In this document: positions 4,464 to 55,313 of the stretch, one piece after another | Numbering within the stretch: position 1 is the first letter of the stretch | Layout: each line of letters opens with the position of its first letter | Source: Polyangiales bacterium | GTDB lineage: Bacteria > Myxococcota_A > Polyangia > Polyangiales > Ga0077539 | Direction: 5' to 3' | Assembly: GCA_044229975.1 (NCBI GenBank) | Contig: JBGARZ010000002.1 | Location: 32,001 to 96,000, forward strand | DNA length: 64,000 bases | Translations under genes and position numbers: made by a program | The notes under the pieces: generated by a model | The model's database searches: none | What the model was told of the DNA's origin: nothing | What the model saw: the letters and a program-made list of their open reading frames with translations, nothing else

Positions 4464-5303
4464 CCGCAGCCGCCGGAGCGCCGCGGCCGCGTAGCCCTGG
4501 GCCGACTTCGCGAGCGCCTTCGCCGACCGACGCAGATCACCCGACGCGAGAAACTGCGTCGCCGCCGCCGACATCACGTCGCCGTACTGGCGCGGGCTCC
4601 ATCGCCGCAGCTTGTCGAGGTAGTCCGTCGCCTCCTCGGTGAGCACCACGAACGACCGATACTGCCGCGGGTTGGCGCTGAACAGCTTGGTCCGCGTGAG
4701 CTGGTCGGCGCCGTCGGTGTAGTAGATGCGCAAACCCTGGTGGATGTAGTACCAGCGCGCGTTTTCGTGGATGCGTGTCCAGAGCACCGACTCCCGGCCC
4801 GCGAGCCGTTCGTCGAAGCGGTGCTTGCCCAGGATGCGCGTGTGGAACATCCCCCAGAACTCCCCCCGCGTGTCCGAGAGCCAGCCTTCGAGGGTGATGT
4901 ACTGGTCCCGCTCCCACCCGTGGCCGGAGAAGCGGCCGGTGCTCGAATCGACGCAGTTGCAGGAGATGGCATCGAGCGTCGGGTCGACGTCGCGCAGCAC
5001 CCGCATCATCGTCGAAAGTGCCTCGGGCGCGAGCGCGTCGTCGCTGTCGAGCGCCGCGATCCACTCGCCGCGGCAATGGTCGAAGCCGGTGTTCTTGGCG
5101 GCTGTCACGCCGCGGTTGACGTCGTGGGAGACCAGTCGGATGCGCGGGTCGGTGTAGCGGGCGACCACCGCGCGCGTGTCGTCCGACGAGCCGTCGTCGA
5201 CGATCACCACCTCCCAGTCCTGCCAGTCCTGCGCGAGCACGCTGTCCAGCGCCCGCGGCAGCGTGTGCGCCCGGTTGAACGCCGCCATCACCAGCGAGAT
5301 CAC
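4446..5303 (-). CDS. Glycosyltransferase family 2
   Basis: ISLVMAAFN, VIVDDGSSD, ALDSDD. GTG start overlaps the upstream gene's TGA (GTGA); the longer N-terminus in the ORF track is spurious. Confidence 0.9.
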   Translation of the reverse strand: MISLVMAAFNRAHTLPRALDSVLAQDWQDWEVVIVDDGSSDDTRAVVARYTDPRIRLVSHDVNRGVTAAKNTGFDHCRGEWIAALDSDDALAPEALSTMMRVLRDVDPTLDAISCNCVDSSTGRFSGHGWERDQYITLEGWLSDTRGEFWGMFHTRILGKHRFDERLAGRESVLWTRIHENARWYYIHQGLRIYYTDGADQLTRTKLFSANPRQYRSFVVLTEEATDYLDKLRRWSPRQYGDVMSAAATQFLASGDLRRSAKALAKSAQGYAAAALRRLRSAPAA

Positions 5304-8231: not shown

Positions 8232-9178
8232 GCCACCCCTACCTCGTTCGCCGCGACCGATGCCCGGCGTGCACCAGCGATCAGCACAAGACGCTCTTCG
8301 AGTGCGGGCTCACCGCGTCGCCCATCCGCGAGCACCTCGTCTCCCTCTACGAGCCGCAGGGAATGATCGAGCTCCAGTACCTGGAGGGCGGTGACTTCCG
8401 CCTTCAGGAGTGCCTCGTGTGCGGGCTGCTCTACCACCAGGACGTCCCCGGCGACGCCCTGATGGAGCGCCTCTACGAGCACTGGATCGACCCCGTCCGC
8501 GCCCAGGCGCAGCACGACGCCCACGTCACGATGGACACGCGGATGATGTTCATCCGGGAGATCGTGTTGGCAATGGAGGTGGTCGAGCGACCGTCGCCGA
8601 AGCTGCGCGCCTTCGACTTCGGCATGGGCTGGGGCGACTGGTGCCTCATGGCGCGGGCCTTCGGCTGTGAGGTCTCGGGCAACGAGCGCTCACCCAGCCG
8701 ACTCGCGCGCGCGAAGGCCAACGGCATCGAGGTGGTTCCGTGGGAGGACATCCCCGCGCGCAGCTTCGACCTCATCAACTGCGACCAGGTGTTGGAGCAC
8801 GTCGTCGATCCCCTCGACACGCTCACCTACGTCGCGAAGGCGCTCGCGCCCGGCGGGCTCTTGAAGGTCAGCGTGCCCAACGGCGCGGACATCCACCAGC
8901 GGCTCGCGCGCGCCAACTGGATGGCGCCCGAAGGGTCGGCCGACTCGCTGCTGTCGGTGACGCCGCTCCAGCACATCAACTGCTTCCGGCACGACTCGCT
9001 CGTGGCAATGGCGCGTCGCGCGGGGCTGCGTCCCGCGGAGATTCCGATCGCCAAGCAGATGGCCAGCACGGTCGACCGCTTCACGCCGTCGCAGCTCCTC
9101 AACGGGCTCACCCGACCGCTCGGCCGACGCCTCCTCACGCGCGACACCTACCTCTTCCTCGAACACGCGAAGGACTGA
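8228..9178 (+). CDS. Class I SAM-dependent methyltransferase with N-terminal zinc ribbon
   Basis: CPAC...CLVCG; FDFGMGWG; FDLINCDQVLEH; ATGA overlap with the upstream gene. Confidence 0.85.
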   Translation: MSHPYLVRRDRCPACTSDQHKTLFECGLTASPIREHLVSLYEPQGMIELQYLEGGDFRLQECLVCGLLYHQDVPGDALMERLYEHWIDPVRAQAQHDAHVTMDTRMMFIREIVLAMEVVERPSPKLRAFDFGMGWGDWCLMARAFGCEVSGNERSPSRLARAKANGIEVVPWEDIPARSFDLINCDQVLEHVVDPLDTLTYVAKALAPGGLLKVSVPNGADIHQRLARANWMAPEGSADSLLSVTPLQHINCFRHDSLVAMARRAGLRPAEIPIAKQMASTVDRFTPSQLLNGLTRPLGRRLLTRDTYLFLEHAKD

Positions 9179-36794: not shown

Positions 36795-38039
36795 GTGACA
36801 TCGAGCGAGAACGACGAGCGGGACGACGAGCGGGACGACGAGGTCGAGTCCGCCGAGGCTCCAGGGGCAGAGGCCCAGGAGGCCGCCGCGGAAGATCCGA
36901 ACGTCCCGAAAAACCGCGCCGAGCGCCGTGCTGCGGCGAAGGCTGCGCGTCGTGGCCGGGTGGCCGTGCTCTCGGATGGGACGACTCCGGCCGAGGACGA
37001 AGTTCTCGGCGACCTGACCGCGGACGGCGCGGGGCTCGCGCTGCCGACGACCTCGATGGGTGGAAACCCGTCGTCCCTCACCGAGGCGACGCCCGGCGCG
37101 GGCCGTCGCAAGCCGCCGCCTCGCACGATGGCGAAGGGCACCGGCGACGCGGAGGGCGTGCCGGAGTGGGCGCGCTCGTGGGCTGATTCGCTGGGCAAGC
37201 ACCGCCGTACGCTGGTCATGGCCGCGGCGGGTGTTCTGGTGGTCGTGGTCGCCGCCACCGGGTGGCAGACGTGGCAGGAGCGAAAGGCCGCCCGCGCGGG
37301 TGATGCGTTCGCTGACGCGCTGCTGTCTGCCAACGCCAACATCGAGGCCGAGGAGACCCCCGCGCGCGAAGATGCACCGCCGCGGCGTGGTCCGGTGTAT
37401 CGCTCGCTCGAAGCGCGTCTGCGGGCCTCGACCGAGAAGTTTCGCCAGGTCGAGCAGCGCAACCCGCAGAGCCGGGTAGCGCCCATCGCGCGCCTGTCGG
37501 AGGCGACGGCACTCTATCAGCTGGGTCGTTACCAGGAGGCGCGTCAGCTCTACCAGGCGTTGCTCGGCGTAGACACGTCGGGGCTGGAGGCGAGGGTGCT
37601 GGAGGGCCTGGCGTTTACGTTGGAGTCGCTCAACGACCTCGACGGCGCCGCGACCCGGTACCGTGAGCTCGCGGCGGTGCAAAACGGCGCCTACCGAGAC
37701 TCCGCACAGTTCTACCAGGCGCGTCTCTTCGTGCGTCGGGACGATCCGGCGCACGCGAAGGAGCTGCTCCACGGCATCATCGAGCGGACGGCCCACCCGA
37801 CCGCGACCGATCCGCTCGCGACCTCGGTGCAGAACCTCCGTGAGCAGTCCATCGCGCTGCTTCGGGAGATCGATCCGCAGGACCCGCAGATCATCGAGTA
37901 CGACCGCGCTCGTGCGTCGGGTAGCGAAGCGGGCGGCGAGCATGCCGGCGAGGGCGGCGGACGCGATCCGCTTCAGGGTTTGCCCCCCGCGCTGCGTCGT
38001 CAGATCGAAGAGCAGCTCCGGAAGCAGGGGCGCCGCTAG
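36795..38039 (+). CDS. YfgM-like TM + TPR protein with an acidic N-terminal extension
   Basis: One TM helix then TPR-like helices; upstream of a beta-propeller lipoprotein, as in yfgM-bamB. Confidence 0.7.
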   Translation: MTSSENDERDDERDDEVESAEAPGAEAQEAAAEDPNVPKNRAERRAAAKAARRGRVAVLSDGTTPAEDEVLGDLTADGAGLALPTTSMGGNPSSLTEATPGAGRRKPPPRTMAKGTGDAEGVPEWARSWADSLGKHRRTLVMAAAGVLVVVVAATGWQTWQERKAARAGDAFADALLSANANIEAEETPAREDAPPRRGPVYRSLEARLRASTEKFRQVEQRNPQSRVAPIARLSEATALYQLGRYQEARQLYQALLGVDTSGLEARVLEGLAFTLESLNDLDGAATRYRELAAVQNGAYRDSAQFYQARLFVRRDDPAHAKELLHGIIERTAHPTATDPLATSVQNLREQSIALLREIDPQDPQIIEYDRARASGSEAGGEHAGEGGGRDPLQGLPPALRRQIEEQLRKQGRR

Positions 38040-38046
38040 GGCGTCG

Positions 38047-39243
38047 GTGTTCGCAGTGGGTTTACACCGTCGGTTGATCGCCGCGCTCGCAGCGGGCGCG
38101 CTCGCTTTGTCGGGCTGCGCCCGGTTGCAACTTGGGACGCACGCGCACCCAGATCTCAACGAGGCCGCGCCGGTATGGCGCCGGACCATCGCCCAGTTCC
38201 AGTGGCGCGCTCCGCTGGTCGTCGCGACCGACCTTGAGAGCCACCCGAGAAACCGCGGCATTCCGGCCGTCGACGCCGAGCGGGGTCTCGTCTACGTGGG
38301 CGGGCTCGACCACGGCGTGCATGCGCTGCGGGCCGACGATGGTCTGCCCATCTGGCGATTTCAGACGCTGGGAGCTGTCGAGGGCAGCATCGTCCTCGAC
38401 CGCGACACGGTGTTTGTCGGCTCCGACGACGCCGCTCTCTACGCGCTGGACGCTACGACGGGCGTGCAGCGTTGGCGCTTCGCGGCGGCCGCCGAGGTGG
38501 TCCGGGCACCGATCGTCACGCCCGATGCGGTGTACTTCGTGAGCGCGGACGACACGGTGTTTGCGCTCAATCGTGTGACGGGCGAACAGCGCTGGCGCTA
38601 CCATCGCGACCCCCCAGGCGGCATCACAGCGAGCGGTCACGCCGGGCTGTTGTTCGCGCGGGGGAAGCTCTTCTGCGGCTTCTCCGACGGCACCGTGGTG
38701 GCCATCGATCCGGGCGACGGGTCGGCGAGCTGGGAGCGAGACACGGCGGCTGACGCGGACGAGGACGGTGCCTCCGAAGCGCATCGGGTGATCGACGTCG
38801 ACACGACGCCGGTGTTGCTCGATGGGTCGCTGTTCGTGGCGTCTCAGTCGACGGGGCTCTATGCGCTCGACCCCCAAGGGGGCGGCGTTCGCTGGCGTCT
38901 AGACTGGTTGAAGGCCGCCTCGTCGATGGCTTCGGACGGGCGCCACCTGTACGTGACGTCGTCGACCCTGGGACTCGTGAAGCTCGATCCCGCGGATGGG
39001 TCGGTGCTCTGGGCGCGGGACTTCGGCGCCGGGGCGTTGCAGGTGACGGACGCCGGGGACGGACTGTTGATGGTTCCGTCAGCGTCGCAGGCGCTGTGGC
39101 TGGTGCGCGCTCGCGACGGCGAGGTGCTGGAGGGCCTCGGCCGGGGTGGGGTCACCGGGATGCCGATCCGGTCGGGGTCGTGGGTGTTCTTCGGAACCAA
39201 CCTGGGCGTGCTCCAGGCGTACCGGCTCACGACCGCGCAGTAG
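38047..39243 (+). CDS. PQQ-type beta-propeller lipoprotein (BamB-like)
   Basis: Lipobox LSGC; repeated ALDxxTGxxxW blades. Confidence 0.85.
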   Translation: MFAVGLHRRLIAALAAGALALSGCARLQLGTHAHPDLNEAAPVWRRTIAQFQWRAPLVVATDLESHPRNRGIPAVDAERGLVYVGGLDHGVHALRADDGLPIWRFQTLGAVEGSIVLDRDTVFVGSDDAALYALDATTGVQRWRFAAAAEVVRAPIVTPDAVYFVSADDTVFALNRVTGEQRWRYHRDPPGGITASGHAGLLFARGKLFCGFSDGTVVAIDPGDGSASWERDTAADADEDGASEAHRVIDVDTTPVLLDGSLFVASQSTGLYALDPQGGGVRWRLDWLKAASSMASDGRHLYVTSSTLGLVKLDPADGSVLWARDFGAGALQVTDAGDGLLMVPSASQALWLVRARDGEVLEGLGRGGVTGMPIRSGSWVFFGTNLGVLQAYRLTTAQ

Positions 39244-39447
39244 AGCGACTGTTCGGGCGTCGGGGGGCGTCGGGGCTGGGCCGGGACCCCGCAGGGGTGT
39301 GTGTGCGTTGGTCTGCCTGGGCCGCAGGCTGGAGCGAGTGGGGCGCGGTCCACTTGGGACCCGTCGCATGGGCTGGGGCAACCGCTGAGCAGCGGTGTGG
39401 ATTGGCCGGGAAACCAGCCAGATCTCCCCGTTTTCCCCAGCTCTTGA

Positions 39448-39475
39448 ACTTCGCATAATATGTATTCTGTAAACT
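39448..39475 (+). other. dif: dif-like XerC/XerD chromosome dimer resolution site
   Basis: ACTTCGCATAA-TATGTA-TTCTGTAAACT (11-6-11). Compare E. coli GGTGCGCATAA-TGTATA-TTATGTTAAAT and B. subtilis ACTTCCTAGAA-TATATA-TTATGTAAACT. AT-rich island between convergent genes. Confidence 0.9.
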
Positions 39476-39771
39476 AACGAAACGCCGGGTCCGAGAGGGG
39501 GCACCTGGGGATTCGCGGATCCCTCCCTTCCCCAACTCCGGGCCTCCTTCCGCTTTCTGGGCGGCGCAAAGTGTGTGCGGCCCTCTGCGAGACGAGACTC
39601 GTTGTCTAGTCAGTGATTCGGGGACCACCGATGGCTGAGGCACACGCCAGCGTTCGACCGAGGCTGCGCGTCGGCGCCTGGTCCCGGTCCCGGCCTGCAT
39701 AAGGGGCGCAAGGACACGCATCACCCTTTGTCGGGCGACATGCATTGCGAGCGATGTTGCATATGCCGAAG

Positions 39772-39802
39772 GAGTTTACAGAATGATTGGTTCCGTAAAC
39801 TC
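39772..39802. repeat. Inverted repeat of two XerD-type arms with a 7-bp spacer
   Basis: GAGTTTACAGAA-TGATTGG-TTCCGTAAACTC; the left arm contains the exact reverse complement of the dif right arm. Confidence 0.85.
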
Positions 39803-39847
39803 GATCGCCTTGGCGGACGCCCGCGGTTGGTCGAGGCCGACCGATCC

Positions 39848-40927
39848 TCAGTCCGCAGAGCTGCGCGGACGCGAGCGTCGGGTCGACTCGGTCGCGAGCT
39901 GTCCACAGGCAGCCCCGATGTCCTTGCCCCCGCTGTATCGGCGGATGACGGGCACACCGAGGCCCGCGAGGCGGTCGTGGAAGCGATCCAGCTCTTCCGC
40001 CGTCGGGGGTCGATACGGGAGGCCCGCCACGGGGTTCCAGTCGATGAGCGACAGGCGCGCGGGCATTGTCTTGAGCAGGTCGGCAAGCGCGTCGGCTTCG
40101 GCGTCCGTGGTGTTCACCCCGCCCATCAGCGCGTAGGCGAACATCACCAATCGTCCAGACCGCTCATGGAAGCGCTGCGCCGCTTCGACCACCTCACGGA
40201 TCGGGTACTTGCCCTCCATCGGAACCAGGCTCCGCCGCAGGGCGGGTTGGGCGCTCGTGATGCTGATGCCGAGCCTTATGCGTGTTCGCATGGATGCGAG
40301 ACGCTCGATGCCAGGCACGATGCCTACGGTGCATATCGTGATATTCCGCGCGTCTACGGCTAGTCCGCAGGGGTTCGAGAGCACCTCGATCGCTTGCAGC
40401 ACGTTGTCGAGGTTATGCAACGGCTCCCCCATCCCCTGGAAGACGACGCCATGCACCCTCCCCTCGCCTGACGCCCGGAGTTCGGTGGCCACGAGGCGCA
40501 CCTGCTCGACGATCTCCCAGGCTTCGAGGTTCCGGCGCAGGCCCATCTGGGCGGTCGCGCAAAAGCCGCAGCCCATCGCACAGCCGACCTGGGAGCTGAC
40601 GCACACGACGAAGCGGCCGGCCCGTTCGAGAGGGATGCGCACGGTTTCCACGACCGATCCGTCGGGCAGGGTCACCGCGAACTTGATGAAGGGATCTTCC
40701 TGCGACGCTCGGCGCTCGGTGACCTGCACGGTGCCGATGGGGAGCTCGGCCTCGACGAGCTTGCGGGCGCTGGTGCGGAGCTGCGGGACGTCGAGCAGGG
40801 TCGACCCGCCTCGTTGCACCACGTGCGCGATGATGCGCCGCGCTTCGGCGGGACGGAGGGCGTCTTCGCCGAAGCGGGCGATGAGGCGTTCGGGCGTCTC
40901 GCCCTGGAGGCGGTCGGTCGGGTGCAT
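39848..40927 (-). CDS. RlmN/Cfr-family radical SAM RNA methyltransferase
   Basis: CVSSQVGCAMGCGFC, QGMGEP, DIGAACGQL. Confidence 0.88.
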   Translation of the reverse strand: MHPTDRLQGETPERLIARFGEDALRPAEARRIIAHVVQRGGSTLLDVPQLRTSARKLVEAELPIGTVQVTERRASQEDPFIKFAVTLPDGSVVETVRIPLERAGRFVVCVSSQVGCAMGCGFCATAQMGLRRNLEAWEIVEQVRLVATELRASGEGRVHGVVFQGMGEPLHNLDNVLQAIEVLSNPCGLAVDARNITICTVGIVPGIERLASMRTRIRLGISITSAQPALRRSLVPMEGKYPIREVVEAAQRFHERSGRLVMFAYALMGGVNTTDAEADALADLLKTMPARLSLIDWNPVAGLPYRPPTAEELDRFHDRLAGLGVPVIRRYSGGKDIGAACGQLATESTRRSRPRSSAD

Positions 40928-43354: not shown

Positions 43355-46300
43355 TCAGCCGCGGAGCTTCGCGAGGAGCTCGGTGGCGCGGGCGTGCTGG
43401 CGGTCGCTCTCCAGCGCGCGTTCGAGCATCCCAATGGCCTTGGGCTTGTCGTTCTGCAGCGAGAGGGTCTCGCCGAGGTAGGCGTAGACGTCGGCCTTGG
43501 TGAGCCCGACGCCCGGGTCCAGGCGCTGGAGCAGCAGCGCGCGGAAGGTCTTCTGCGCGCGATCGAGGTCGCCGATCTCCAGGCACAGCAGACCGAGGTC
43601 ACGGAGGATCGGCACGCTCGTCAGGTCGACCTTGAAGGCCGCGTCGAAGCTCGCGAGCGCTTCGAGCTTGTTGCCCAGGCGCTGCTGCACCTGGCCGAGG
43701 CGGTGCTGCCACTGGGCGAGTTCCTTGGTCCGACGACCGGCGAAGCTCGCGATGATGCGCTCGATGATGGGCGCCGCGTCCTGCTCGCGACCGTTGGCCG
43801 TGAGCAGGTCGACCAGGGGCAGCAACACCTCACGGTCGTCGGGAACGAGCGCCGTCGCGCGCTCCAGGTAACCGATGGCGCGCGCCGGGTCGGAGAGCTG
43901 GTCACGCGAGAGCGTCGCGAGACTGCGGAGCAGGGTGACCTGCGCCGCCGGGGCGGTGGTGACGGCGAGCTCACGCTCGGTCACGTCCGCGAGCAACGCG
44001 TGGTCGTTGCGAGACTCCGCGAGGGCGCGGAGACGACGGAGGGCGTCGACCGAGGACGGGTCGAGCTCGAGCGCCCGGCGCAGGCTCTGCTCGGCGCCGC
44101 TCGCATCGTTCATGCGGTCGGCCTCGAGCGTCGCGAGGTGCAGCGCCATCGCCGCGGAGGTCGCGCCAGGCTCGGCCACCGCGACTGCGCGTCGCAGCAT
44201 CGAGGCGGCCTTCTCGAAGTCCCCTGATCCTTCGGCGAGCCGGGCTACCGCCGCGAGGGCGCCGGAGTGCTCGGGCTGTCGGTCGAGCACGCGCTCGTAC
44301 AGCTCGATGGCGCGGTCGACGTCGTTGAGCCGCTGCTCGTGGAGCTCGCCGATACGCACCAGGGTAGTGAGCTCGGTGGACGAGTCGCCCATCGAGACGG
44401 CGTGGTCGAGGCGCCGTTCGAGCAGCTCGGAGAGCTCGCTCCAGCGCGAGAGCGAGGCGTAGAGGCGCTCAAGCCCCTCGCCCGCCGCCCCGTGTTCGGG
44501 GACCTCGTCGAGGATCTCCCGCAGGTAGTCCACCGCCGACTGCGCCGAGTGGAGGTGCTGCTCGGCGATGTCCGCGAGGCGCAGGCGCGTAGTGACCCGC
44601 TCGTCGACGGAGACGGCGACGTCGAGGCGACCGCGCAGGGCATCCTCCAGGTCGCGCCAGCGTGAGGCGTGCTCGAACAGACCTTCCAGCGCCACGCGAG
44701 CGGCGAGGTCGGACGGATCGAAGTCGAGCACCTCGCGCCACGCACCGATCGCGCGCTCTTCGTCGGAGAGCTGCGTCGCATAGAGGCCCGCGACCTCGCG
44801 GCGCAGACGCAGCGCCTCGGCCGGGTCATCGGAGAGACGCGCGCGTCGACCCAGCAGGTCGGCGAGATCTTCCCACCGACCCTGTCCCCGACGGAGCCGT
44901 GCGAGCTCGTCGATGGAGGTCGGGTCGGAGTCGTCGACCTCGAGCGCCGCCGTGGCGATCTCCGCGGCGAGGTCGGGGTTGTTGAGCGCGCCTTCGGCGA
45001 GCCGGGTGGCCTCGCGCAGCATCGCCTTGCGGGCGTCGCTGTCGAACTCCACCTCCGCGCGCCGACGCAGCGTCGCGACGAGGTCGGCCTCGCGGCCGGG
45101 CTGACGCTGGAGCCCTTCGAGCATGGTCAGGGCCTCGACGTTTTCGGCGTCGGCGGCGAGCGCATCACGCACCCGCGCCTCGGCCGCGGCGGTGTCACCG
45201 ATGGACTCGGCGTACCACCGCGCGCCGCGCAGGTTGAGGCGCACGGTCTCGTCCGGCAGTAGCGCCCGCTCGGGCGCCACGGCGGACTCGATCACGCCGC
45301 GCAGGGAAGGCCACGCGCTCGCGGCGGGAGCCAGGCGCTCCATCTCCGACAGCAGGCCCTCGTCCCTCGGGTCGAGCGCGAACGCCCGAATCACCGCGTC
45401 CAGCGCGCCCTTGAGGTCGGACATGCGCTCCTCGCGCAGGCGCGCGAGGTCACCCAGGATGCGAACCTGCTCCGAGGCCACCGTGGTCGACTCGACCTTG
45501 AGGCCGAGCAGCCACGCCTGCCGCGTCGTGTCGTCGCTGCGCTGGAACGTGCTCTCCAGCACCTCCATCGCGTCGTCGCGCACGGTCGGCTCGTCGATGA
45601 GCTTCTCCAGCAGCTCGATGGCGCGCGCGTGGGTCGGGTTGCGCTCCACGACGTTCTGGAGCGACGAGACCGCGCCGCGGGCGTCGGAGAAGCGGGTCAT
45701 CCGCAGCTCGGCGAGGCGCACCTCCAGGGCGTCGAGCGCCTCCGGCGAGGCCAGCAGAACCCGGCGTTCGAGCACGTCGCCGAGCTCGATCCACTGGGCG
45801 TTGCGCGAGTAGATCTGGTCGAGTGCTTCGAGCACCGAGTCATCGTCACCGCCGAGCTCAAGTGCCTGGCGGTAGTTGAGCGCCGCGCGGGCGTCGTCCT
45901 CCATGCGCTCGACCGCGACACGCGCCGCACGCACCGAGAGGTCGCGACCCGTGGACGGGTCGGAGCCCTCACGCACCGCACGCTCCAGCGCCGTGACGAG
46001 GTCGGCCCAGCGGTTGAGCGACGCGGCGAGGCGCTCCAGCTCGGGCAGCGTCGACGGGTCGGCGGCGTCCTCCGCGAAGGCACGGAGATAGCTGTCGAAG
46101 GCCGCCGCGGCGTCCTTCCGTCCGTCTTCGTGCACGGCCGCGATGCGACGAAGCTCCGTCGCCCGCTGCGCCATGTCGTCGACTGCGCCCAGCCGGTGCT
46201 CCAACACCTGCACCAGGTCGTCCCAGCGTCCGGCGCTGCGGTACAGCGGTTCGAGCACCTCGACAGCCGCCACCCGCTGGTCGGCAAACTGCGAGATCTC

Positions 46301-49300
46301 CCGCACCGCCGTCAGGGCGTCGGCGTTGGTCGGATCGGCGCCGAGCACCTCGCGGTAGCTCTCCAGCGCGGCCTCGTTGTCGCTGAGCTCCTTCAGCTGG
46401 AGTGCGCCCACGCGCAGGAGGAGGTTGGCGCGGTCGGCCGGGGCCTCCGCCATCGCCACCTGCGTGCGGAGGTTTTCGAGCAGCTCGGGGTGCATCGACT
46501 GCGCGGCGAAGAGTCGCTCCAGCGCGCGGATCGCCTCGGTCTGCCCCGCGCTCTCGTCGAGCGCGCGGCGGTAGGCGTCGATGGCGTGGTGCGGATCGTC
46601 GAGCGAGCGCTCCCACAGCCGGCCGAGCCGCAGGGCGGTCTCGGTTCGGGTGTCGACGTCGGTCTCCACGTCAAGGCGCTGCTGGAGGACCTCGGCGAGG
46701 CCGCGGTGGTCGCCGCGCTGCGTGAGCAGGCCGTCGAGCGCCTCCAGGGAGACGAGGTCGCCCGGGTCGAGTTCGAGCGCCCGCTGGAAGGCGTGAATCG
46801 ACGCCGCCGGGTTGTTGAGCATGTCGCGCTGCGACTCGCCGATGGTGTGCAGCAGGAAGCGCCGGTGCTCGTCGTCGTGCGAGCGGGTCACCTTGCGCTC
46901 CAGCACGTCGATGTGTCCCTCCCAGTCGGAGAGCAGCACGTGCAGGCCCTCCAACTGGTCGAGCACGTCGATCAGCGTCTCGTCGACGACGAAGAGGCGC
47001 TCATAGGCCGAGATCGCCGCGCGCGGATCACCGCGCCGCTGGTCGTGCGTGGCCGCGATGGCGCGCAGCAGCTCGGTCTTGAGCACGATGTCGTCGCTGG
47101 CCGCGAGGGCCGCTTCGTAGCTGCGCACCAGCTCGTCCCAGAAGCCGTGCTCCCCGGCGAGGCGCTCCACGGATTCGCGGGCCTCGCCGTCGCCGGGGTC
47201 GCCCCCGAAGGCCGCGCTGAAGGCCTCGAAGGCCAGCTTCGGATCACGCGCGCGGGTCTCGCGGATGCGGCCGATCTCCTTGAAGATCTGCGCCCGATCG
47301 GTGGGGTCGGTGGTCGCCGCGAGGCGCGCTTCGAGCACGCCTACGAGCCGCGCCCAGTCGTCGAGCTCGCGGTACACGGGCTCGAGGATCTCCACGATGC
47401 CGATGCGCAGCTCCGGCTTCGCCTCGGCGAGCTGCTCCAGCGACTGGATGGCCACGCGGTGATCGCGGCGGTCTTCCAGGATCTCCCGGAAGGCCTCGAC
47501 CGCGCCCGGAGCGTCGTCGAGCCGGTCGGCGCGCAGGCGCCCCAGACGGAACCGCAGCGCCGAGCGCTCATCGGTGTCGACCGCGTCGCCGATGCGCCGC
47601 TCCAACAGGTCGGCGAGGTCACGCCATGCTTCGGTCTTCACCAGCAGGGCGTCGAGTCGCGCGATGGCGGCCTCGTCCATCGGGTCGACGTCGAGCACGG
47701 CGCGGTAGTCCGCGATGGCGCGCTCGGGGTGGTTGAGCGGACCCTCGTCGATGGCCGCGATGCGGTGGAGGAACTGCTTCCGCTCCACCGGATCGGCCGC
47801 GCGCTCGGCCGCGTCGCGGTACAGGTCGAGCAGCTCGGCGTGGGCGTTTTCGCGCGTGAGGAGCGCCTCCAGCGCGTCGAAGGCCTCGCGGCGGCTGCCG
47901 TCGAAGGAGAGCGTGCGGCGGTAGTACCGGCGCGCGCGGGCGGTGTCGTGGACGCGCTCGTCGAAGAGCCGCGCGGCGACCAGCGAGAGGTCGGCCGAGC
48001 TGTCGTCGTCGACGGTGATGCCCTCCAGCGTGGCGGCGTAGACCTCCGCGAGCTTCGGGTGCGCCTCCGTCGCGCGGGCGAGCCGGTCGAGGGTCGACCA
48101 CGTCGCGCGGTCGGTCGGGTCTTCACGGAAGATGCGCGCGTAGGAGTCGAGGGCGCGACCGGGGTCGCCGATGTTGTCCTCGAACAGCGTCGCGAGCCGG
48201 GTGAGCAGCTCGATGCGGGCGGGTGGATCGTCCTCCGCCGCGATGCGCGACTCCAGCGCGCCGATGAGCTTCGGCATGTCCTGCCGGGCCCGGTAGATGG
48301 GCTCCAGCATCGTCGCGACGCGCGCGGCGAGCTCGGGCCGACGACCGAGCTCTTCGAGCGCCGACACGGTGGCCTCGTGGTCGGTCGAGTCGTCAAGCAC
48401 CGCGCGGAAGTGCTCAAACGCGCGCTCGGTGTCGTCGAGGTGATCCATCGCCACCCGGCCGAGCCGGTGGTGCAGGTCGGCGACGTTGGCGCCGTCGCGG
48501 GTGAGCTGCGAGTCCAGCAGGTTGGCGAGGTCGTCCCAGCGCGAGGCCCGCGCGTAGAGCCGCTCCAGCGCCGCGGCGCTCTCGGCGTCGAAGCCCGAAC
48601 CGAGGATCGCCTCGTACGCCTCCATCGCCCCGTCGCGGTCGTCGCGCTTCTCCTCCTGGATGCGCGCGACCTTGTGCAGGAGCGTCCGGCGAGCCTCGTC
48701 GGTCTCGGCGAGCTCCACCTTGCGGCGCAGCACCGCGAGCAGCTCGGGCCACGCCTGCGTCGACTCGTGGAGCGACTCCAACGCGTCGAGGGCCGGCGCG
48801 AAATCGCTCTGGTTCTCCAGGGCCTTCTCGAAGTGCTCGCGCGCCGTCGCGGCGTCGTCGAGCTTCGACAGCGCCGTCCCCGCCACGTGCATGTACACGT
48901 CACGCTGCAGTTCCCCGTCGAGCAGCTTGGGCGCCACCTCGCGGAACACCGCGATCATCTCCTTGTGCCGTCCCGACTGGCTCGCGAGCGACTCCACGTG
49001 GGTCACGCGCTGCGCCGCATCGGCGTCCTCCGCGGCGAGGGACAGCGCCCGCGAGGCACGCTCGAACGCGCGCCCCGGGTCCGACAGCCCCATCTCCGCC
49101 ACGTCTGCCGCCTTCGACAGCGCCTGCAATCGCTCGTCACGGTCGTCGCTCTCGGCCGCGATGCGGTCGAGCACATCGACCAGCTTCGACCAGTCACCAT
49201 CGGCTCGGAGCACCGGCTCCAGCGCCCGGGCCGCCGCGATCGGAACCTCCGGCAGATCCGACCGCAGCATCTCGGTGAGCGCCGCGCGCGCCGCCGGTGT

Positions 49301-52300
49301 GGTCGGGTCGAGCGCCAGGGCCTCCTGGTAGCCGAGCACCGCCAGCAAGGGCTCGCCCGTCTTGCGGTACCGGAGGTCCGCCGCGCGCACCATCAGCGCG
49401 AGGCGATCGGTCGGGTCTTCGACGACGGCGAGGTCGCGCTCGACCACCGCAAGCAGGCCCGCCCACTGGTCGGACACTTCCAGGAGACGCGCGAGCGCCG
49501 CGTGGATGGCGCGGTCGGGGCCGAAGCTCGTGAGCACCTCTTCGTAGAGCGCGATCGCCTCGGGCACCGCGGCGAGCTTCTCTTCGAGCACCGACGCGGC
49601 CTGCACCAGCAGGCGCTTCTGCGACTCACCGTCATCAACCAGCGCCGCCTGCCGCCGCAGGGCCTTCACCAGTTCTTCCCACTGACCGCTGCGTTCGTAG
49701 AGCCGCGCGAGGGAGCGCAGCGCGTCGAGGTCGCCCGAGTCGAGGTCGAGCCGACCCCGCTGCGCGTCGATGGCCCCGGCCAGATCGCCGACCTCGTCCT
49801 CCAGGATCTCCGCCGCCTGCGCGAGCAGGGACGTCTGGAGCGTCGGGTCGGACTCGTGCTTCGCCCGCAGGCGCAGCGCGTCGACGAGACCACGAGGGTT
49901 CTGCAACGCGCGGTAGAGGCGCTCCAGGGCGACGGCCGCCGAGAGCGTCGTGTCGCGATCGCCCTCGGCCTCGGTCAGCAGCCGACGGAACGTTCGCTCT
50001 GCCTTCACCGGGTCGATGAGCCGCTCGTCGTAGATCGCCGCGAGGTCGCGCAGCACGGGCACCCTCACTCCGCTCGCGCGCGGGTCTTCGAGCACCTCCT
50101 CCAGCGTGTCGGCCGCTCGCGCGTCCTGCAACGCCACCGCCGAGAGCCGCAGCAGCTCCTCGCGGAAGGTCGACTGCGTCGGGTCTTCGAGCGTTGCCGT
50201 GGCGATGGCGTCGAGGGCGCCGACGGGGTCGTGCAGCACGATCTCGCGCAGCTCGGCGATGCGCTGGTAGAGCGCGGCGCGAGGAGCACCCGCGGGCGTC
50301 GCCTCCAGCCGGATCTGGAGCATCCGCACCAGGGCTCCAGCGCTCGGATCGCCGTCGCGGTCGTAGAGCGATTCCAGGCCGTTGGCCGCCCGCTGACGAA
50401 GCGCGGGCGCTTCGACGAGACGCTCCAGGCCGCGGCGCGCGCGGGCGTTGGCCGCGTCGGACTCGACCACGCCCTCGTAGTCGACGATCGCATCGTTGAG
50501 GCGCGACAGCCGGATCTCCAACGTCTCGGCGCGGCGGAGCCTGAGCTCCTGCGCTTCGTCGGTCCCTGCCCGCTGCTCCAGCGAGCGGGTGAGCAGCGCG
50601 ACGAGCGCGTCCCAGCGACCGAGCCGCTCGTACAGCCGGTCGAGGGCGCTAGAGACCTCGACGTTGCTCGCGTCGAGCGCGGCGGCGCGCTCCAGTGCGC
50701 TCGTGGCCTCTTCGGGCTGGTCGAGCACGTCTTCCAGCAGCTTCGCCTCTTCGATGAACAGCGCCACGCGCGCGTCGTCGTCGGTGAGCCGCTCGACCCA
50801 GGTGCCGTAGAGCGCGTGCAGGTCGGACCAACGAGCGTGCTGCTTGTAGAGCCGCTCCAGCGCCTCGAAGGCGCCGGGCTCCAGCGCACCGCCCTCGATC
50901 ACCACGCGGTGGAAGGGCTCGGCCGCGGCGGCGTCGCCGTTGCGGTCTTCGTGGAGGGCGGCCGTTCGACGGGCCAGCCAGACGCGCACCGCGGGGGCCG
51001 TGGTCTCGCGCGCGACGAGGGTCGCGAGGAAGGTCGCGAGCTCGGCGGTCCAACCGCCCTCGATGGCGAGGCCGGTGAGGGCGTTGGCGACGGGTTCCGA
51101 CGAGGGCTCCGCGTCGAGCATCGAGCGCAACAGATCGAAGCCCGATCGCGGGTCGTCGAGGCGCTCGGCGTAGACCCGCGCGAGGCGCAGGCCGAGCTCG
51201 CGCCGACGGTCGGCGTCCTCCTCCACGTCGAAGAGAATCTGCAGCACCCACGCCAGCTTGCGGAACTGTCCGATCTCCTCGAACTCGGGCTCCAGCGTCT
51301 GCGCCGCGACCACGCGCCAGGTCTCGTCGCGCAGCAGCGACTCCAGCGCGTCGAGGGCGCCCGGGTGGTGGGGCGAGAGCGAGAGCACCTCGCGGTAGAA
51401 ATCGATCGCGGCCTCGACCTTACCGAGGCGGTCGCGCTGTACGGCGCCGAGGGCGAGGGCGAGGTCGGCGCGTTCGGCGCCCTCGACGAGGCCGTGGCGG
51501 GCGAGCAGCGTGGACTCGAGCTCCGTCCAACGCCCAGCGGCCTCGGAGAGGCGCGACAAGGCCGCGAGGGAGGTTGCATCGGTGGGGTCGGAGGCGATGA
51601 GCACGCGGAAGCGTTCGCTCGCCGCGTCGGGCTGCTGGAGCACGGCCTCTTCGAGCTCGGCGACCTCGGCGATGAGGGCGCGCCGCTCGTCACCCGCCGC
51701 GCGGGCGATGCGGTGGTCGAAGAGCTTCCGCAGGTCGTCCCAGCGCTGGGCCCGGCGCAGCAGCGCGTCGAGCGACTGGATCACCGCTGCGTCGTCGGGC
51801 GACTGACCGAGGGCCCGCTCGATGCGGGTGACCGCTGCGTCGACCTCACCCAAACGATCGGCTTCGATCGCGGCGCTCTTGTCCCGCAGGCGGGCGATCT
51901 CGACCGCGTCGGTCGAGGCGGCGGAGCGCGCGTCGAAGGTGTCGACGAGCTCGCGCCACCCACCAGCCTCCGCGGCGCTGGCCTCGACCTGCGTCTCCAG
52001 CGACTCGTCGGTCGGGTCGAGGCGGTACGCGCGCAGGGCCCACTGAAACGCCGCCGTGCGGTCGCCGAGGCGGCCCGCCGAGATCTCCCGCAGCTTGTGC
52101 AGGTACCCCAGGGCGCCCGTACGGTCGTCCGCGGGGAGCGCGTTGAGCAGCACCTCGTAGAGCTGCGCGAGCCGCGACCAGCGCTCGTCCTCCAGGTAGA
52201 TGGGCACCAGGGCCGTCGCGGCAGCGACGTTGGTCGGGTCGACCGTGAGCACCCGCTCGTAGCTCCGAAACGCCCTCGCCGGCTGCTTGAGCCGCTCTTC

Positions 52301-54814
52301 GTAGACCCGCGCCGTGCGGAACGACAGAGCGACCTTGTCCTCGGGCGCCGTCGCCCGATCGGCGCTGCTGCCGAGCACCTCGGCGAGCCCTTCGAGGTCG
52401 CCCGCCTCGTCGTAGAGGGCTTCGAGCCGATCCCACTGCCCCGCCTGCGTGTAGACGTCACGCAGGACGCGCAGCGCCTTCGGATGCCGCGCCTGCGTCT
52501 GGAGCACGCGTCGCCACGCGTCGATGGACCGCTCGGCGTCGCCGATGCGCTCGCCGTACACGGAGCCGAGCTTCATCAACAGGGCGACCTTCGGCTCGGC
52601 GTCGTCGGTCTCGCGGACGCGCTGCTCCAGCACCTCGGCGAGGCCCGCGAAGTCGCGCTCGCGCTCCGTGAGACGCTCCAACGCGTCGAGCGCGCCCGGG
52701 GTCTTCGCGTCGAGCGCCAGCGCCTCGCGCCACAGCCCGATGGCCTCGGTGTTGGCCCCGAGCTTCTCGGCGGCGAGCTTCGCCAGCTCCACCAGCGCGT
52801 CGCGCTTCGCGTCACCCTCCAGGCGCTCGGCCTCGCGGCGCGACACGTCGAAGAGCGGGCGCCACGCGCGACGGCGGGTGTAGAGGTCCTTGAGCTGGGC
52901 GAGGGCGTCGGCGTCGGTGGGGTCGAGCGCGACGATCTGCTCCAGCGGACGGGTGGCGTTGTTGACGTTGTTGAAGCGCTCGACCCAGAGCTTCGCCACG
53001 CGGCGCAGCAGGGCCACCTTGGTCGCAGGGTCGTCGGCGTACTCGACCTGCTGGTCGAGCATCTTGATGACGTCGGTCCAACGGTTGAGGCGCTCGTAGC
53101 TCTCGGTGAGCGCGACCAGCGACGGGCGGTCGCCCGGCTCCAAGAGCAGCAGCGCGTTGTACGTCTGCACCACCATCGGCTCCAGCCCGAGGCGGTCGCG
53201 GTAGATGGTCACCATCTCCCGCAGGATCTCGGCCTTGCGCTCCTTGTTGGTGCTGAGGTCCGTGCCGGGGCGCACGCCGCCGAGGGCCTCCAGCTCCTGG
53301 CGGAGGAGCTCGACGAGGTTGTTCCAGCGACCCGCCGTCACGTAGAGGCGGGCGAGCGACTGGCGCGCGTCGACGTACTGCGCGTCGAGGCGCAGCGCCA
53401 TCTTCCAACCCTCGATGGCCTTGTCGACCTGGCCCGCATTCTCGGCCGCGCGAGCGCCTTCGACGGCCTGGACGAGGCGCGGGTTGGCGCCCGTCGGCGG
53501 TGCCGACGTCGTGAGCGGAAGGCGCACCTCGCCCGCCGCTTCGGGGCTCGCGGGCGGCGGCGCGGTGATGCGCGTGTCGGTGGGCGCAGACTCCTCCGCG
53601 GAGGGAGCGTCGATGGCCTCGTCAGCGGTGGCGCTGATCACCACCTGCTCCTGCTCGCCGCTCGGCGCGGGCACCGAAACGGGGGCGGGCTCGGGGTTGG
53701 TGTCGCGCTCCGGCGTCGACGCTTCGGCCGTCGGGACGGCGTCGACGACCGCGGCGGGCGCCTCGTCGACAGGCGCCGCGGACGGGTGCGCCGCGTAGAA
53801 CGCATGCACCGACGGGTGATCGGCGTCCACGTCGCGCAGTCGACGGAAGAAGGGCTCGGCGCGGGCAGCGTCGTTGCGCACGCGCCAGTGGGTCATGCCC
53901 GCCTGCACGAGCAGACCGACGTCGGCGCCGTCCTCTGCGCGTGCCCCGATCTGGGCCTCGTAGAAGTCCGCGAGGTCGTCCCAGCGCTCGCGCTCGGTGA
54001 GGATCGCCACCACGAAACGGCGCGCCGACGCGTTGCCGGGGTCGAGCTCGAGGATGTGCCGGTAGATGCGCTCGGCCGCGCCGATGTCGCTGCGCCGCGC
54101 GGCGTGCGTGCGGGCCGCGCGAAACAGCAGGTCGACCTTGGCCGACGCGGGCTGCACCGCCGCAGCGGAGCGTTCGAGGTGGGCGGCGAGGTCGTCCCAA
54201 CGGCCGCCGCGACGACGCAACACGCGCTCGAAGAGCTGCACCGCGCGGAGGTTGCCGGGGTCGATGGAGAGGGCCGACTCGAAGATGGCGTCGGCCTCCT
54301 TCTCGCGCCCCTTGGGCTTGTACTGGAGCACCACGGCCGCGGCGCTCACGAGGTGCGACGCGATGACGCCGGGCTCAGTGGAGCCTTCCTCGGCGTTCTT
54401 CTTGAACGCGCCCGTGATGTCCTTCCAGCGGGCCTTCTTGGTGTTGAGCCGGTCGCGCATCTCCGTCGCTTCGGCGTCGTCGCCGCTCGACAGCACGGAC
54501 TCCAGCGTCGCGAGCGCCGTCTTGTCGTCGAGCAGCTCCTCCTCCAGGTAGCGCGCCCGCTCGCGCAAGAGCGCAGCGCGCGCCGTCGCGTCGGCGGCCA
54601 CGGCCGCTTCGACGGAGAGCATCGACGCCACGGCTTCGGCCTCGCCGCGGTCGTGCAGCTTGCGACGGGTCTCGGCCAGCAGCGCGCGGCCCTCGTCGCC
54701 CGCGCGGGTCAGCTCGTCGCCCGACGCGAGCTCCTCCAACGTCGCCCACGCGTTTGCGTTCTCGGGATCATCCAGGAGCGAGCCGAGAAGCCTGCGAACA
54801 TTGTCTACGCTCAT
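43355..54814 (-). CDS. Giant TPR-repeat protein (~3819 aa), AgmK/GltI-like
   Basis: Continuous TPR-like repeats (ALxALERLY..xxRWxDL); start re-called at MSVDN after GGAGA; orthology not established. Confidence 0.85.
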   Translation of the reverse strand: MSVDNVRRLLGSLLDDPENANAWATLEELASGDELTRAGDEGRALLAETRRKLHDRGEAEAVASMLSVEAAVAADATARAALLRERARYLEEELLDDKTALATLESVLSSGDDAEATEMRDRLNTKKARWKDITGAFKKNAEEGSTEPGVIASHLVSAAAVVLQYKPKGREKEADAIFESALSIDPGNLRAVQLFERVLRRRGGRWDDLAAHLERSAAAVQPASAKVDLLFRAARTHAARRSDIGAAERIYRHILELDPGNASARRFVVAILTERERWDDLADFYEAQIGARAEDGADVGLLVQAGMTHWRVRNDAARAEPFFRRLRDVDADHPSVHAFYAAHPSAAPVDEAPAAVVDAVPTAEASTPERDTNPEPAPVSVPAPSGEQEQVVISATADEAIDAPSAEESAPTDTRITAPPPASPEAAGEVRLPLTTSAPPTGANPRLVQAVEGARAAENAGQVDKAIEGWKMALRLDAQYVDARQSLARLYVTAGRWNNLVELLRQELEALGGVRPGTDLSTNKERKAEILREMVTIYRDRLGLEPMVVQTYNALLLLEPGDRPSLVALTESYERLNRWTDVIKMLDQQVEYADDPATKVALLRRVAKLWVERFNNVNNATRPLEQIVALDPTDADALAQLKDLYTRRRAWRPLFDVSRREAERLEGDAKRDALVELAKLAAEKLGANTEAIGLWREALALDAKTPGALDALERLTERERDFAGLAEVLEQRVRETDDAEPKVALLMKLGSVYGERIGDAERSIDAWRRVLQTQARHPKALRVLRDVYTQAGQWDRLEALYDEAGDLEGLAEVLGSSADRATAPEDKVALSFRTARVYEERLKQPARAFRSYERVLTVDPTNVAAATALVPIYLEDERWSRLAQLYEVLLNALPADDRTGALGYLHKLREISAGRLGDRTAAFQWALRAYRLDPTDESLETQVEASAAEAGGWRELVDTFDARSAASTDAVEIARLRDKSAAIEADRLGEVDAAVTRIERALGQSPDDAAVIQSLDALLRRAQRWDDLRKLFDHRIARAAGDERRALIAEVAELEEAVLQQPDAASERFRVLIASDPTDATSLAALSRLSEAAGRWTELESTLLARHGLVEGAERADLALALGAVQRDRLGKVEAAIDFYREVLSLSPHHPGALDALESLLRDETWRVVAAQTLEPEFEEIGQFRKLAWVLQILFDVEEDADRRRELGLRLARVYAERLDDPRSGFDLLRSMLDAEPSSEPVANALTGLAIEGGWTAELATFLATLVARETTAPAVRVWLARRTAALHEDRNGDAAAAEPFHRVVIEGGALEPGAFEALERLYKQHARWSDLHALYGTWVERLTDDDARVALFIEEAKLLEDVLDQPEEATSALERAAALDASNVEVSSALDRLYERLGRWDALVALLTRSLEQRAGTDEAQELRLRRAETLEIRLSRLNDAIVDYEGVVESDAANARARRGLERLVEAPALRQRAANGLESLYDRDGDPSAGALVRMLQIRLEATPAGAPRAALYQRIAELREIVLHDPVGALDAIATATLEDPTQSTFREELLRLSAVALQDARAADTLEEVLEDPRASGVRVPVLRDLAAIYDERLIDPVKAERTFRRLLTEAEGDRDTTLSAAVALERLYRALQNPRGLVDALRLRAKHESDPTLQTSLLAQAAEILEDEVGDLAGAIDAQRGRLDLDSGDLDALRSLARLYERSGQWEELVKALRRQAALVDDGESQKRLLVQAASVLEEKLAAVPEAIALYEEVLTSFGPDRAIHAALARLLEVSDQWAGLLAVVERDLAVVEDPTDRLALMVRAADLRYRKTGEPLLAVLGYQEALALDPTTPAARAALTEMLRSDLPEVPIAAARALEPVLRADGDWSKLVDVLDRIAAESDDRDERLQALSKAADVAEMGLSDPGRAFERASRALSLAAEDADAAQRVTHVESLASQSGRHKEMIAVFREVAPKLLDGELQRDVYMHVAGTALSKLDDAATAREHFEKALENQSDFAPALDALESLHESTQAWPELLAVLRRKVELAETDEARRTLLHKVARIQEEKRDDRDGAMEAYEAILGSGFDAESAAALERLYARASRWDDLANLLDSQLTRDGANVADLHHRLGRVAMDHLDDTERAFEHFRAVLDDSTDHEATVSALEELGRRPELAARVATMLEPIYRARQDMPKLIGALESRIAAEDDPPARIELLTRLATLFEDNIGDPGRALDSYARIFREDPTDRATWSTLDRLARATEAHPKLAEVYAATLEGITVDDDSSADLSLVAARLFDERVHDTARARRYYRRTLSFDGSRREAFDALEALLTRENAHAELLDLYRDAAERAADPVERKQFLHRIAAIDEGPLNHPERAIADYRAVLDVDPMDEAAIARLDALLVKTEAWRDLADLLERRIGDAVDTDERSALRFRLGRLRADRLDDAPGAVEAFREILEDRRDHRVAIQSLEQLAEAKPELRIGIVEILEPVYRELDDWARLVGVLEARLAATTDPTDRAQIFKEIGRIRETRARDPKLAFEAFSAAFGGDPGDGEARESVERLAGEHGFWDELVRSYEAALAASDDIVLKTELLRAIAATHDQRRGDPRAAISAYERLFVVDETLIDVLDQLEGLHVLLSDWEGHIDVLERKVTRSHDDEHRRFLLHTIGESQRDMLNNPAASIHAFQRALELDPGDLVSLEALDGLLTQRGDHRGLAEVLQQRLDVETDVDTRTETALRLGRLWERSLDDPHHAIDAYRRALDESAGQTEAIRALERLFAAQSMHPELLENLRTQVAMAEAPADRANLLLRVGALQLKELSDNEAALESYREVLGADPTNADALTAVREISQFADQRVAAVEVLEPLYRSAGRWDDLVQVLEHRLGAVDDMAQRATELRRIAAVHEDGRKDAAAAFDSYLRAFAEDAADPSTLPELERLAASLNRWADLVTALERAVREGSDPSTGRDLSVRAARVAVERMEDDARAALNYRQALELGGDDDSVLEALDQIYSRNAQWIELGDVLERRVLLASPEALDALEVRLAELRMTRFSDARGAVSSLQNVVERNPTHARAIELLEKLIDEPTVRDDAMEVLESTFQRSDDTTRQAWLLGLKVESTTVASEQVRILGDLARLREERMSDLKGALDAVIRAFALDPRDEGLLSEMERLAPAASAWPSLRGVIESAVAPERALLPDETVRLNLRGARWYAESIGDTAAAEARVRDALAADAENVEALTMLEGLQRQPGREADLVATLRRRAEVEFDSDARKAMLREATRLAEGALNNPDLAAEIATAALEVDDSDPTSIDELARLRRGQGRWEDLADLLGRRARLSDDPAEALRLRREVAGLYATQLSDEERAIGAWREVLDFDPSDLAARVALEGLFEHASRWRDLEDALRGRLDVAVSVDERVTTRLRLADIAEQHLHSAQSAVDYLREILDEVPEHGAAGEGLERLYASLSRWSELSELLERRLDHAVSMGDSSTELTTLVRIGELHEQRLNDVDRAIELYERVLDRQPEHSGALAAVARLAEGSGDFEKAASMLRRAVAVAEPGATSAAMALHLATLEADRMNDASGAEQSLRRALELDPSSVDALRRLRALAESRNDHALLADVTERELAVTTAPAAQVTLLRSLATLSRDQLSDPARAIGYLERATALVPDDREVLLPLVDLLTANGREQDAAPIIERIIASFAGRRTKELAQWQHRLGQVQQRLGNKLEALASFDAAFKVDLTSVPILRDLGLLCLEIGDLDRAQKTFRALLLQRLDPGVGLTKADVYAYLGETLSLQNDKPKAIGMLERALESDRQHARATELLAKLRG

Positions 54815-55313
54815 CGCGTGTCGTTCTCCGATGCGCCGTCTGCGAGGGTGTGAAGTGGGAGTCTTCGTCAGGACCGATCGCTGATTCGGGTCCGCGGCGG
54901 TGGGGGACGCGTCCCGTCCCTCCACGCGGGAGCCATCGCTTCAGCCCTGACGTGCGCGGGACGATAGAGCAGCGCTCGCGCGTGTCGCAAGCTGCAATCG
55001 CCGTCGAATTAACGGCAACGCGGGAGCGGCGGCGCGCAGGGCCAAGTCGTCGGCGAGCAGTGCCGTCTTCTTGACGGCGACACCCGTCCGTTGCTAGCGG
55101 ACCTCACTCCAACGGAGCTGTGACGGGTCCGATGGATCGGCGGACGCACCGCCGAGGCAAGTTCACCACGCTCGCCCTGCTGCCCCGCTCGGTCGGGAGC
55201 CGAGGACGGAGTGGTTTCGTGCGCTGGCCCGCGCGCTGCTCTGTCGAGCGGCGTGGGTCCTGCGCGTCTCACGCGTGCGAACGAGCAGCGACCACGGAGG
55301 AGGAGAGAGTCCC

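Follow-up and report, generated by a model that had tools for sequence, protein, structure and literature searches.

A symmetric pair of XerD-type arms beside dif, conserved in one family of Polyangiales, as a candidate XerD docking site

The XDS sites of Bacillus subtilis, reportedly described first by Karaboja et al. in 2021, offer the closest comparison for the site analysed here. In the accounts cited, the XDS sites of B. subtilis and Staphylococcus aureus are independent of XerC, and XerD unloads SMC there (PMC9226527, PMC11894783, PMC8242196). As described by Miele et al. 2022 (PMC9226527), an XDS is built from a full XerD arm, a degenerate centre of 5–6 bp and a second XerD arm reduced to its five inner bases; two XerD molecules are proposed to bind it together. 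XerD2 complexes on dif were observed by Graham et al. 2010 (PMC2800217), as was binding of XerD alone at about 10 nM. The way in which SMC leaves the chromosome is known for few bacteria, the examples given being XerD at XDS in B. subtilis and S. aureus and MatP at matS for MukBEF (PMC11894783). A single conserved symmetric XerD site beside dif would mean that XerD is used non-catalytically in Myxococcota as well. We found no description of such a site in the literature searched, which consisted of titles and abstract openings, with subscription papers mostly outside it.

The site lies at 39772–39802 of the window, by which we mean the whole 64,000-nucleotide stretch analysed (positions 32,001–96,000 of contig JBGARZ010000002.1 in the Polyangiales assembly GCA_044229975.1). 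It is a palindrome with a 29-bp core at 39773–39801, in which two XerD-type arms surround a 7-bp centre; positions 39772 and 39802 form one further G/C pair outside this core. Its surroundings are arranged as follows.

37663–39243, plus strand: bamB-like gene, ending toward the dif interval; the true start is probably further in
39436–39439 (−12 to −9 of dif), plus strand: CMCA flank motif, 8 bp outside the XerC arm
39448–39475, plus strand: chromosomal dif, with XerC arm 39448–39458, 6-bp centre 39459–39464 and XerD arm 39465–39475
39505–39510, plus strand: inverted CMCA flank motif, some 30 bp to the right of dif
39525–39532, minus strand: KOPS-type octamer pointing toward dif, between dif and the palindrome
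39773–39783, minus strand: left, dif-proximal arm of the palindrome, an inverted exact copy of the dif XerD arm
39784–39790, no strand: 7-bp centre, constant in length (26 of 27 family sites) and free in sequence
39791–39801, plus strand: right arm, a XerD arm with one change, at arm position 4
39848–40927, minus strand: rlmN-like radical SAM gene, convergent with bamB and ending 46 bp from the site

Re-reading the window gave the same sequence and position for the palindrome as the original prediction. Its left arm is, as had been claimed, the reverse complement of the dif XerD arm, matching 39465–39475 exactly, and its right arm departs from the dif arm by the single base that had been noted; the changed position is an invariant T in dif and is relaxed in the family sites. 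The distance to dif, put at about 300 bp, is 325 bp from start to start, with a gap of 297 bp. Chance had been judged an unlikely source of the arm matches, and the counts agree: the window holds three matches at one mismatch or fewer where 0.08 would be expected, a number that 100 shuffles never reached. Across the 10.03-Mb genome, the exact 11-base XerD arm has two copies, one in dif and one in the palindrome, and 13 occurrences at one mismatch or fewer. The palindrome is the sole inverted arm pair with at most four mismatches in total (spacers of 0–14 bp) and the sole profile match of at least 30 bits (spacers of 5–9 bp) genome-wide. The 39 contigs hold one strong site, and weak sites or half-sites are indistinguishable from background. 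A single low-depth contig from a public metagenome run (39703–39853) spans the site and differs at two positions, both outside it, which makes an assembly error unlikely.

The dif at 39448–39475 is the working terminus site, as KOPS polarity flips there. On the 1.08-Mb contig, GGGNAGGG octamers number 13 on the plus and 1 on the minus strand to the left of dif, and 33 on the plus and 172 on the minus strand to its right. The GC-skew maximum lies 45 kb from dif. Of 31 family genomes searched, 27 have the same dif. A few kilobases away, the minus strand of the window carries an ORF of 3856 aa with repeated helical segments (43355–54925). In several other families, the XerC arm of dif ends in CAGAA (L071, L105, L106, L108, L109, L233, L234, L251–L255); the C of arm position 3 is thus found in the XerC arm of these families and in the XerD arm of the family that bears the palindrome.

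Like an XDS as described in the sources cited above, the palindrome presents a full XerD arm (here an exact copy of the arm of its own dif) facing an inverted XerD-type arm, with no XerC arm; it also lies in the terminus, has a degenerate centre and occurs in a host with SMC-ScpAB. Its second arm is nevertheless a full 11 bp in which the outer bases are the best kept, whereas the XDS retains five inner bases, and its centre measures 7 bp against the 5–6 bp given in PMC9226527, a comparison that the primary XDS data may change. The palindrome is usually single, less than 1.3 kb from dif and on its XerD side, whereas XDS sites are described at several separate loci. It also belongs to a different phylum, Myxococcota. 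Because the centre length lies outside that given for XDS, and because symmetry, position and apparently number differ, we do not file the palindrome as an XDS member, although its build suggests that it works most like one.

Other Xer sites resemble it less. With dif, the palindrome shares two inverted 11-bp arms, a short centre and the arm sequence of the XerD half (PMC5357621), but it has no XerC arm, its 7-bp centre is unconstrained, and it accompanies a normal dif rather than replacing it. The attachment sites of Xer-exploiting elements such as the TLC phage and the gonococcal island are likewise dif-derived and close to dif (PMC5357621, PMC9226527). As presented there, the XerC arm is retained along with a centre resembling that of dif, and it is the XerD arm that is degenerate, the reverse of what is seen in the palindrome; furthermore, no element lies between the palindrome and dif. 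The difH/XerH and difSL/XerS systems also pair a near-symmetric site with one kind of recombinase (PMC5357621), but difH and difSL are described as the cell's only resolution site, served by its own enzyme, whereas the palindrome coexists with XerC, XerD and a standard dif.

The family in which the palindrome occurs appears to be an uncultured Polyangiales-type group. Of the 28 dif loci of the family, 27 (from 26 of its 27 genomes with such loci) have an arm/centre/arm palindrome on the XerD side, at offsets of 325–1264 bp with a median of 509 bp (27 loci). All of the first 21 dif loci fetched have an inverted arm pair on that side. The profile was built from 19 of these, and the site of G017 was then found with it. 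Of seven loci added later, six carry the site, at +406 to +689. Leave-one-genus-out profiles ranked the known site first in 27 of 27, their background at 18 bits being about 0.001 per 3.1 kb. The most distant example (G014, +1264) has a 6-bp centre. Among 41 genomes, the exact palindrome is found in the source genome alone, and conservation becomes visible only with a degenerate pattern. The flanks of the site are not conserved across family loci.

In the source genome, the palindrome sits at gene ends and not upstream of any gene, and most family loci place the site between the convergent ends of bamB and the rlmN-like gene. Two genomes of genus g9 lack the rlmN-like gene and have the start of larE about 70–100 bp downstream of the site. 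A scan of the interval from dif to the site in the source genome for promoter- and terminator-like matches found none.

The one family genome without the site is G011 (93% complete), which has none within 9–11 kb of dif. At this locus (L097/L269, C166), the XerC arm is altered and a bamB-sized gene lies about 2.5 kb away. A joint natural loss of xerD and the site was considered and rejected: the site-bearing G021 likewise lacks xerD, scpA and the gene upstream, which fits assembly gaps. In genus g5, a second arm pair with a 7-bp centre occurs on the XerC side in three of seven loci (L055 of G012, −334; L053 of G019, −492; L093 of G042, −502), and two more loci have weaker pairs with 6-bp centres (L094 and L096 of G043 and G044, about −335), such that dif in this genus is often bracketed by arm pairs. 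G043 gave two loci (L094 on C63 and L095 on C92) with near-identical dif sequences, each with its own variant of the site, and likely represents two strains in one bin. Two palindrome matches lie away from dif: one at 1756–1784 of L034 (G010 C193), on a 2.9-kb contig of 58% GC and followed by a T-run, and one at 3098–3126 of L035 (G019 C14), 51 kb from dif.

Beyond the family, the genomes searched in the order and phylum yielded no such site; its range may be wider. A one-mismatch pattern matched 14 of 24 family genomes against 0 of 277 others of the order and 0 of 199 non-family genomes of the phylum; its reversed control matched 4 of 301 genomes. With centres of 5–9 bp and no mismatch, the pattern matched none of 397 non-family genomes of the phylum, a set that overlaps the 199. 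Since these patterns derive from the family itself, a scan of other dif loci with their own XerD arms was added (centres of 4–10 bp), and it found a pair in 0 of 47 non-family dif or dif-like loci against 22 of 28 family loci. The 47 loci span 3.8–16 kb each, include three doubtful dif calls and are limited to genomes with a dif-pattern match (45 of 151 in the phylum). Applied to 185,579 species, the strict pattern returned 19 matches. Eight are labelled as myxobacterial or deltaproteobacterial, seven of them with dif within 1.6 kb and one on a short contig without it; the other 11 have no dif and are mostly terminator-like.

Absence from related genomes had been named beforehand as an outcome that would count against the original prediction; that search was run, and 27 of the 28 family dif loci proved to carry the site. 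Conservation near dif, which was to be examined in relatives, holds for this family and was not found in the other genomes searched in the order and phylum. Judged by these comparisons, the palindrome is real, family-specific and under selection as a DNA site.

Both arms are of the XerD type across nine genera. At the positions that separate XerD from XerC arms, the site arms have C at position 10 in 52 of 52, T at position 6 in 49 of 52 and A or C at position 7 in 50 of 52. Measured against the dif of their own genome, they differ by a mean of 2.2 mismatches from the XerD arm and 4.9 from the XerC arm, and 7 of 27 sites contain an exact copy of the own dif arm. The lack of a XerC arm and the 7-bp spacer, both noted at the outset, therefore characterize the family as a whole: the centre is 7 bp long in 26 of 27 sites and 6 bp in the other. 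Its sequence is free, with 23 variants among 26 sites against 7 among 28 for dif, and it matches the dif centre at no more than four of six bases in 25 of 27. At arm position 4, both kinds of dif arm always have T (21 of 21), whereas the site arms have it in only 22 of 38 cases. Inner positions 1–4 decay in genera g3, g6, g9 and g10, whereas the outer seven stay. Co-variation between site arms and dif arms is weak (genus permutation, 0.015) and is driven by arm position 3 in three seemingly related genera, with none at positions 7 and 8.

The source genome contains xerC, xerD, ftsK with FtsK-gamma, smc, scpA and scpB. Its XerD scores 361 bits with TIGR02225, above the cut-off of 329.6; the best match for XerC is TIGR02224, at 289 bits and below the cut-off of 335. 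No extra XerD paralogue was seen among the integrase-family genes, the others of which have far lower scores or resemble integron or mobile-element integrases. The xerD gene lies just upstream of scpA–scpB in the source genome (G000 C20 279144–281633, L175); in 23 of 24 family loci (L136–L167) it precedes scpA, with an M50 peptidase gene between the two in g3, g9 and g10. In other families of the order, in which no site was found, scpA is present in 15 of 16 genomes; it was found within 1.5 kb of xerD in 0 of 7 xerD loci, and the two genes are on separate contigs in 14 of 14 genomes in which both were found. Elsewhere in the phylum the linkage occurs at 4 of 28 xerD loci, which weakens it as a family-specific partner of the site. 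In one genome with the linkage (G324), no palindrome lies up to 8 kb from the dif-like site. The linkage is probably an old one that has been retained; as a single family counts as one event, it supports a connection with SMC weakly.

We propose that the palindrome is an accessory docking site for a XerD pair beside dif, likely without DNA cutting, and that its most likely function is to unload SMC-ScpAB; we put this forward tentatively, at a little under an even chance. Two XerD molecules would bind head to head without XerC, the bound pair would not cut the DNA, and SMC-ScpAB rings arriving at the terminus would be unloaded there, as at the XDS sites of B. subtilis. The first step, binding of XerD as a pair, is likely. 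The XerD-only docking site of the original prediction gains strong comparative support from the family conservation beside dif, the XerD-type arms and the free 7-bp centre, and inverted XerD arms with a centre fixed in length but free in sequence are the trace that a cooperative, non-cutting XerD pair would be expected to leave. Strand exchange probably does not occur, given the missing XerC arm, the 7-bp centre unlike that of dif and the relaxed arm position 4.

Release of SMC, should XerD bind, is somewhat favoured by analogy with XDS. It is the one proven job of XerD-only sites, and for this reason we rank it first, followed by a role with FtsK and then by a different binding protein. It can be argued against an SMC role that XerD is already bound at dif, 300–750 bp away, such that a second site would add little; a second site would be useful for SMC release only if XerD paired with XerC cannot release SMC. 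Recruitment of Topo IV, another role suggested for the site, has lost ground: the 93%-complete, 10-Mb genome yielded one gene of the gyrA/parC family, an 884-aa frame (G000 C13 94574–95977), and a search of that family found no separate Topo IV A subunit. The absence of a detected ParC counts against this role.

The XerD pair might instead serve dimer resolution, as a two-way brake for FtsK or as a local store of XerD that tunes the activation of recombination, which we consider unlikely but deserving of serious attention. Graham et al. 2010 (PMC2800217) report that FtsK is stopped when it meets the outer face of XerD bound to a half-site, and a head-to-head XerD pair would show outer faces in both directions. 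The position of the main site also suits such a role: in all 27 loci it lies on the side of dif that carries the XerD arm, less than 1.3 kb away. So do the presence of FtsK-gamma in 22 of the 24 relatives from the family and the KOPS octamers pointing toward dif inside the gap in 7 of 28 family loci, although these octamers are no fixed part of the gap. KOPS density in the gap (7 in 14.8 kb) equals that beyond it (7 in 16.3 kb), which speaks against the brake or store. A stop 300–750 bp short of dif would also seem to hinder FtsK from reaching dif, and the distances between site and dif show no helical phasing (Rayleigh p 0.34–0.99 for periods of 10–11 bp, 21 loci), which counts against a fixed loop between the two. 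A lost FtsK-gamma was rejected as the explanation for the site, since 37 of 41 genomes have this domain.

SMC release and the FtsK brake could be combined in a compact terminus gate, a rather unlikely arrangement in which the symmetric XerD/XerD site would remove SMC and also act as a brake on FtsK coming from either side, the 7-bp centre being selected for cooperative binding without cutting, on the XerD side of an extended dif with its flank motif. If this were true, XerC-independent docking of XerD would have arisen separately outside Bacillota, and the palindrome would provide a natural one-site test of spacer length switching a tyrosine recombinase from enzyme to roadblock.

Another family-specific protein, such as a MatP-like terminus organiser or a regulator, could bind the site, its likeness to the XerD arm then reflecting duplication of that arm; this appears improbable. 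The site was seen in one family only, the XerD recognition helix of which looks ordinary, and the decay of inner arm positions in four genera would be easier to understand with a different binder. The CMCA motif beside dif, which all 28 family loci carry but only 1 of 44 dif loci from elsewhere, keeps this explanation alive as a second family-only element. Its inverted copy at +56 to +59 is present in 15 of 28 family loci. The flank motif corresponds only loosely to part of a DnaA box, with two or fewer mismatches to the 9-mer in 11 of 28 loci. It shows that, beyond dif and the palindrome, the terminus of this family contains further elements, on which another factor may act. A different binder would however have to account for the retention of all XerD-specific positions in both arms across nine genera. 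Its copy number of about one per genome is unlike that of a multi-site organiser or a regulon, and a regulator is further disfavoured by the location between convergent gene ends in most loci and by the lack of a promoter-like match in the interval of the source genome.

Recombination by XerD alone, with four XerD subunits at paired sites as a backup for the unlinking of sister chromosomes, is very improbable. The two inverted 11-bp arms would permit it, Xer centres of 6 and 8 bp both function elsewhere according to PMC5357621, and sisters share the same centre, so that a free centre would be no block to exchange between them. In the same genomes, however, dif centres are constrained and site centres are not (7 variants among 28 against 23 among 26), the T of arm position 4 that is invariant in dif is often lost from the site arms (22 of 38), and the normal XerC/FtsK system is intact. 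Exchange between the site and dif is also unlikely, as so few centre bases are shared.

The original prediction had also allowed for a scar or attachment site of a Xer-using mobile element, for which the chance now seems remote. Dif-like sites do occur in 180-bp repeats beside IS91-family transposase genes in the source genome and its relatives, indicating that Xer-like mobile sites are active in the lineage. The palindrome, however, has neither a XerC arm nor homology to the dif centre. The gap between it and dif holds no element genes, no coding-like ORF of at least 90 aa (20 family loci) and no shared 7–9-mer above the shuffle null, and the arms are kept over nine genera while the flanks are not.

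An RNA hairpin, whether it terminates the rlmN-like transcript or belongs to a small RNA, is scarcely credible: the minus strand of the source genome could pair fully with one G–U, 46 bp past the rlmN-like stop, but the fully paired GC-rich stem and U-run of an intrinsic terminator are not a family trait (2 of 26 sites are perfect palindromes and 0 of 26 are followed by a T-run, against 7 and 6 of 11 look-alikes in other phyla), the terminator scan was negative, Rfam gave no gathering-level match and one chance-level match (E 0.4), and true mismatches on both strands in 43 of 286 arm pairs show an asymmetry kept without compensation, as expected of a DNA site.

The dif-like repeats form a separate set of observations. 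They are near-identical direct repeats of 180–196 bp with a dif-like core, spaced 1–7 kb apart around varied genes. In the source genome they lie at 4694–4873, 8110–8289 and 15004–15183 of L002 (G000 C14), and relatives carry them at L099, L100 and L101 (G002) and L102–L104 (G008). IS91-family transposase genes lie beside several of them and an integrase-family segment beside one. They could be Xer-type cassette arrays or the ends of integrase/IS91 elements. A genome from another family of the order (G111 C3) has ten identical dif-like sites besides its true dif, nine of them in two clusters, at 2738710, 4411529–4437684 and 5227895–5265222.
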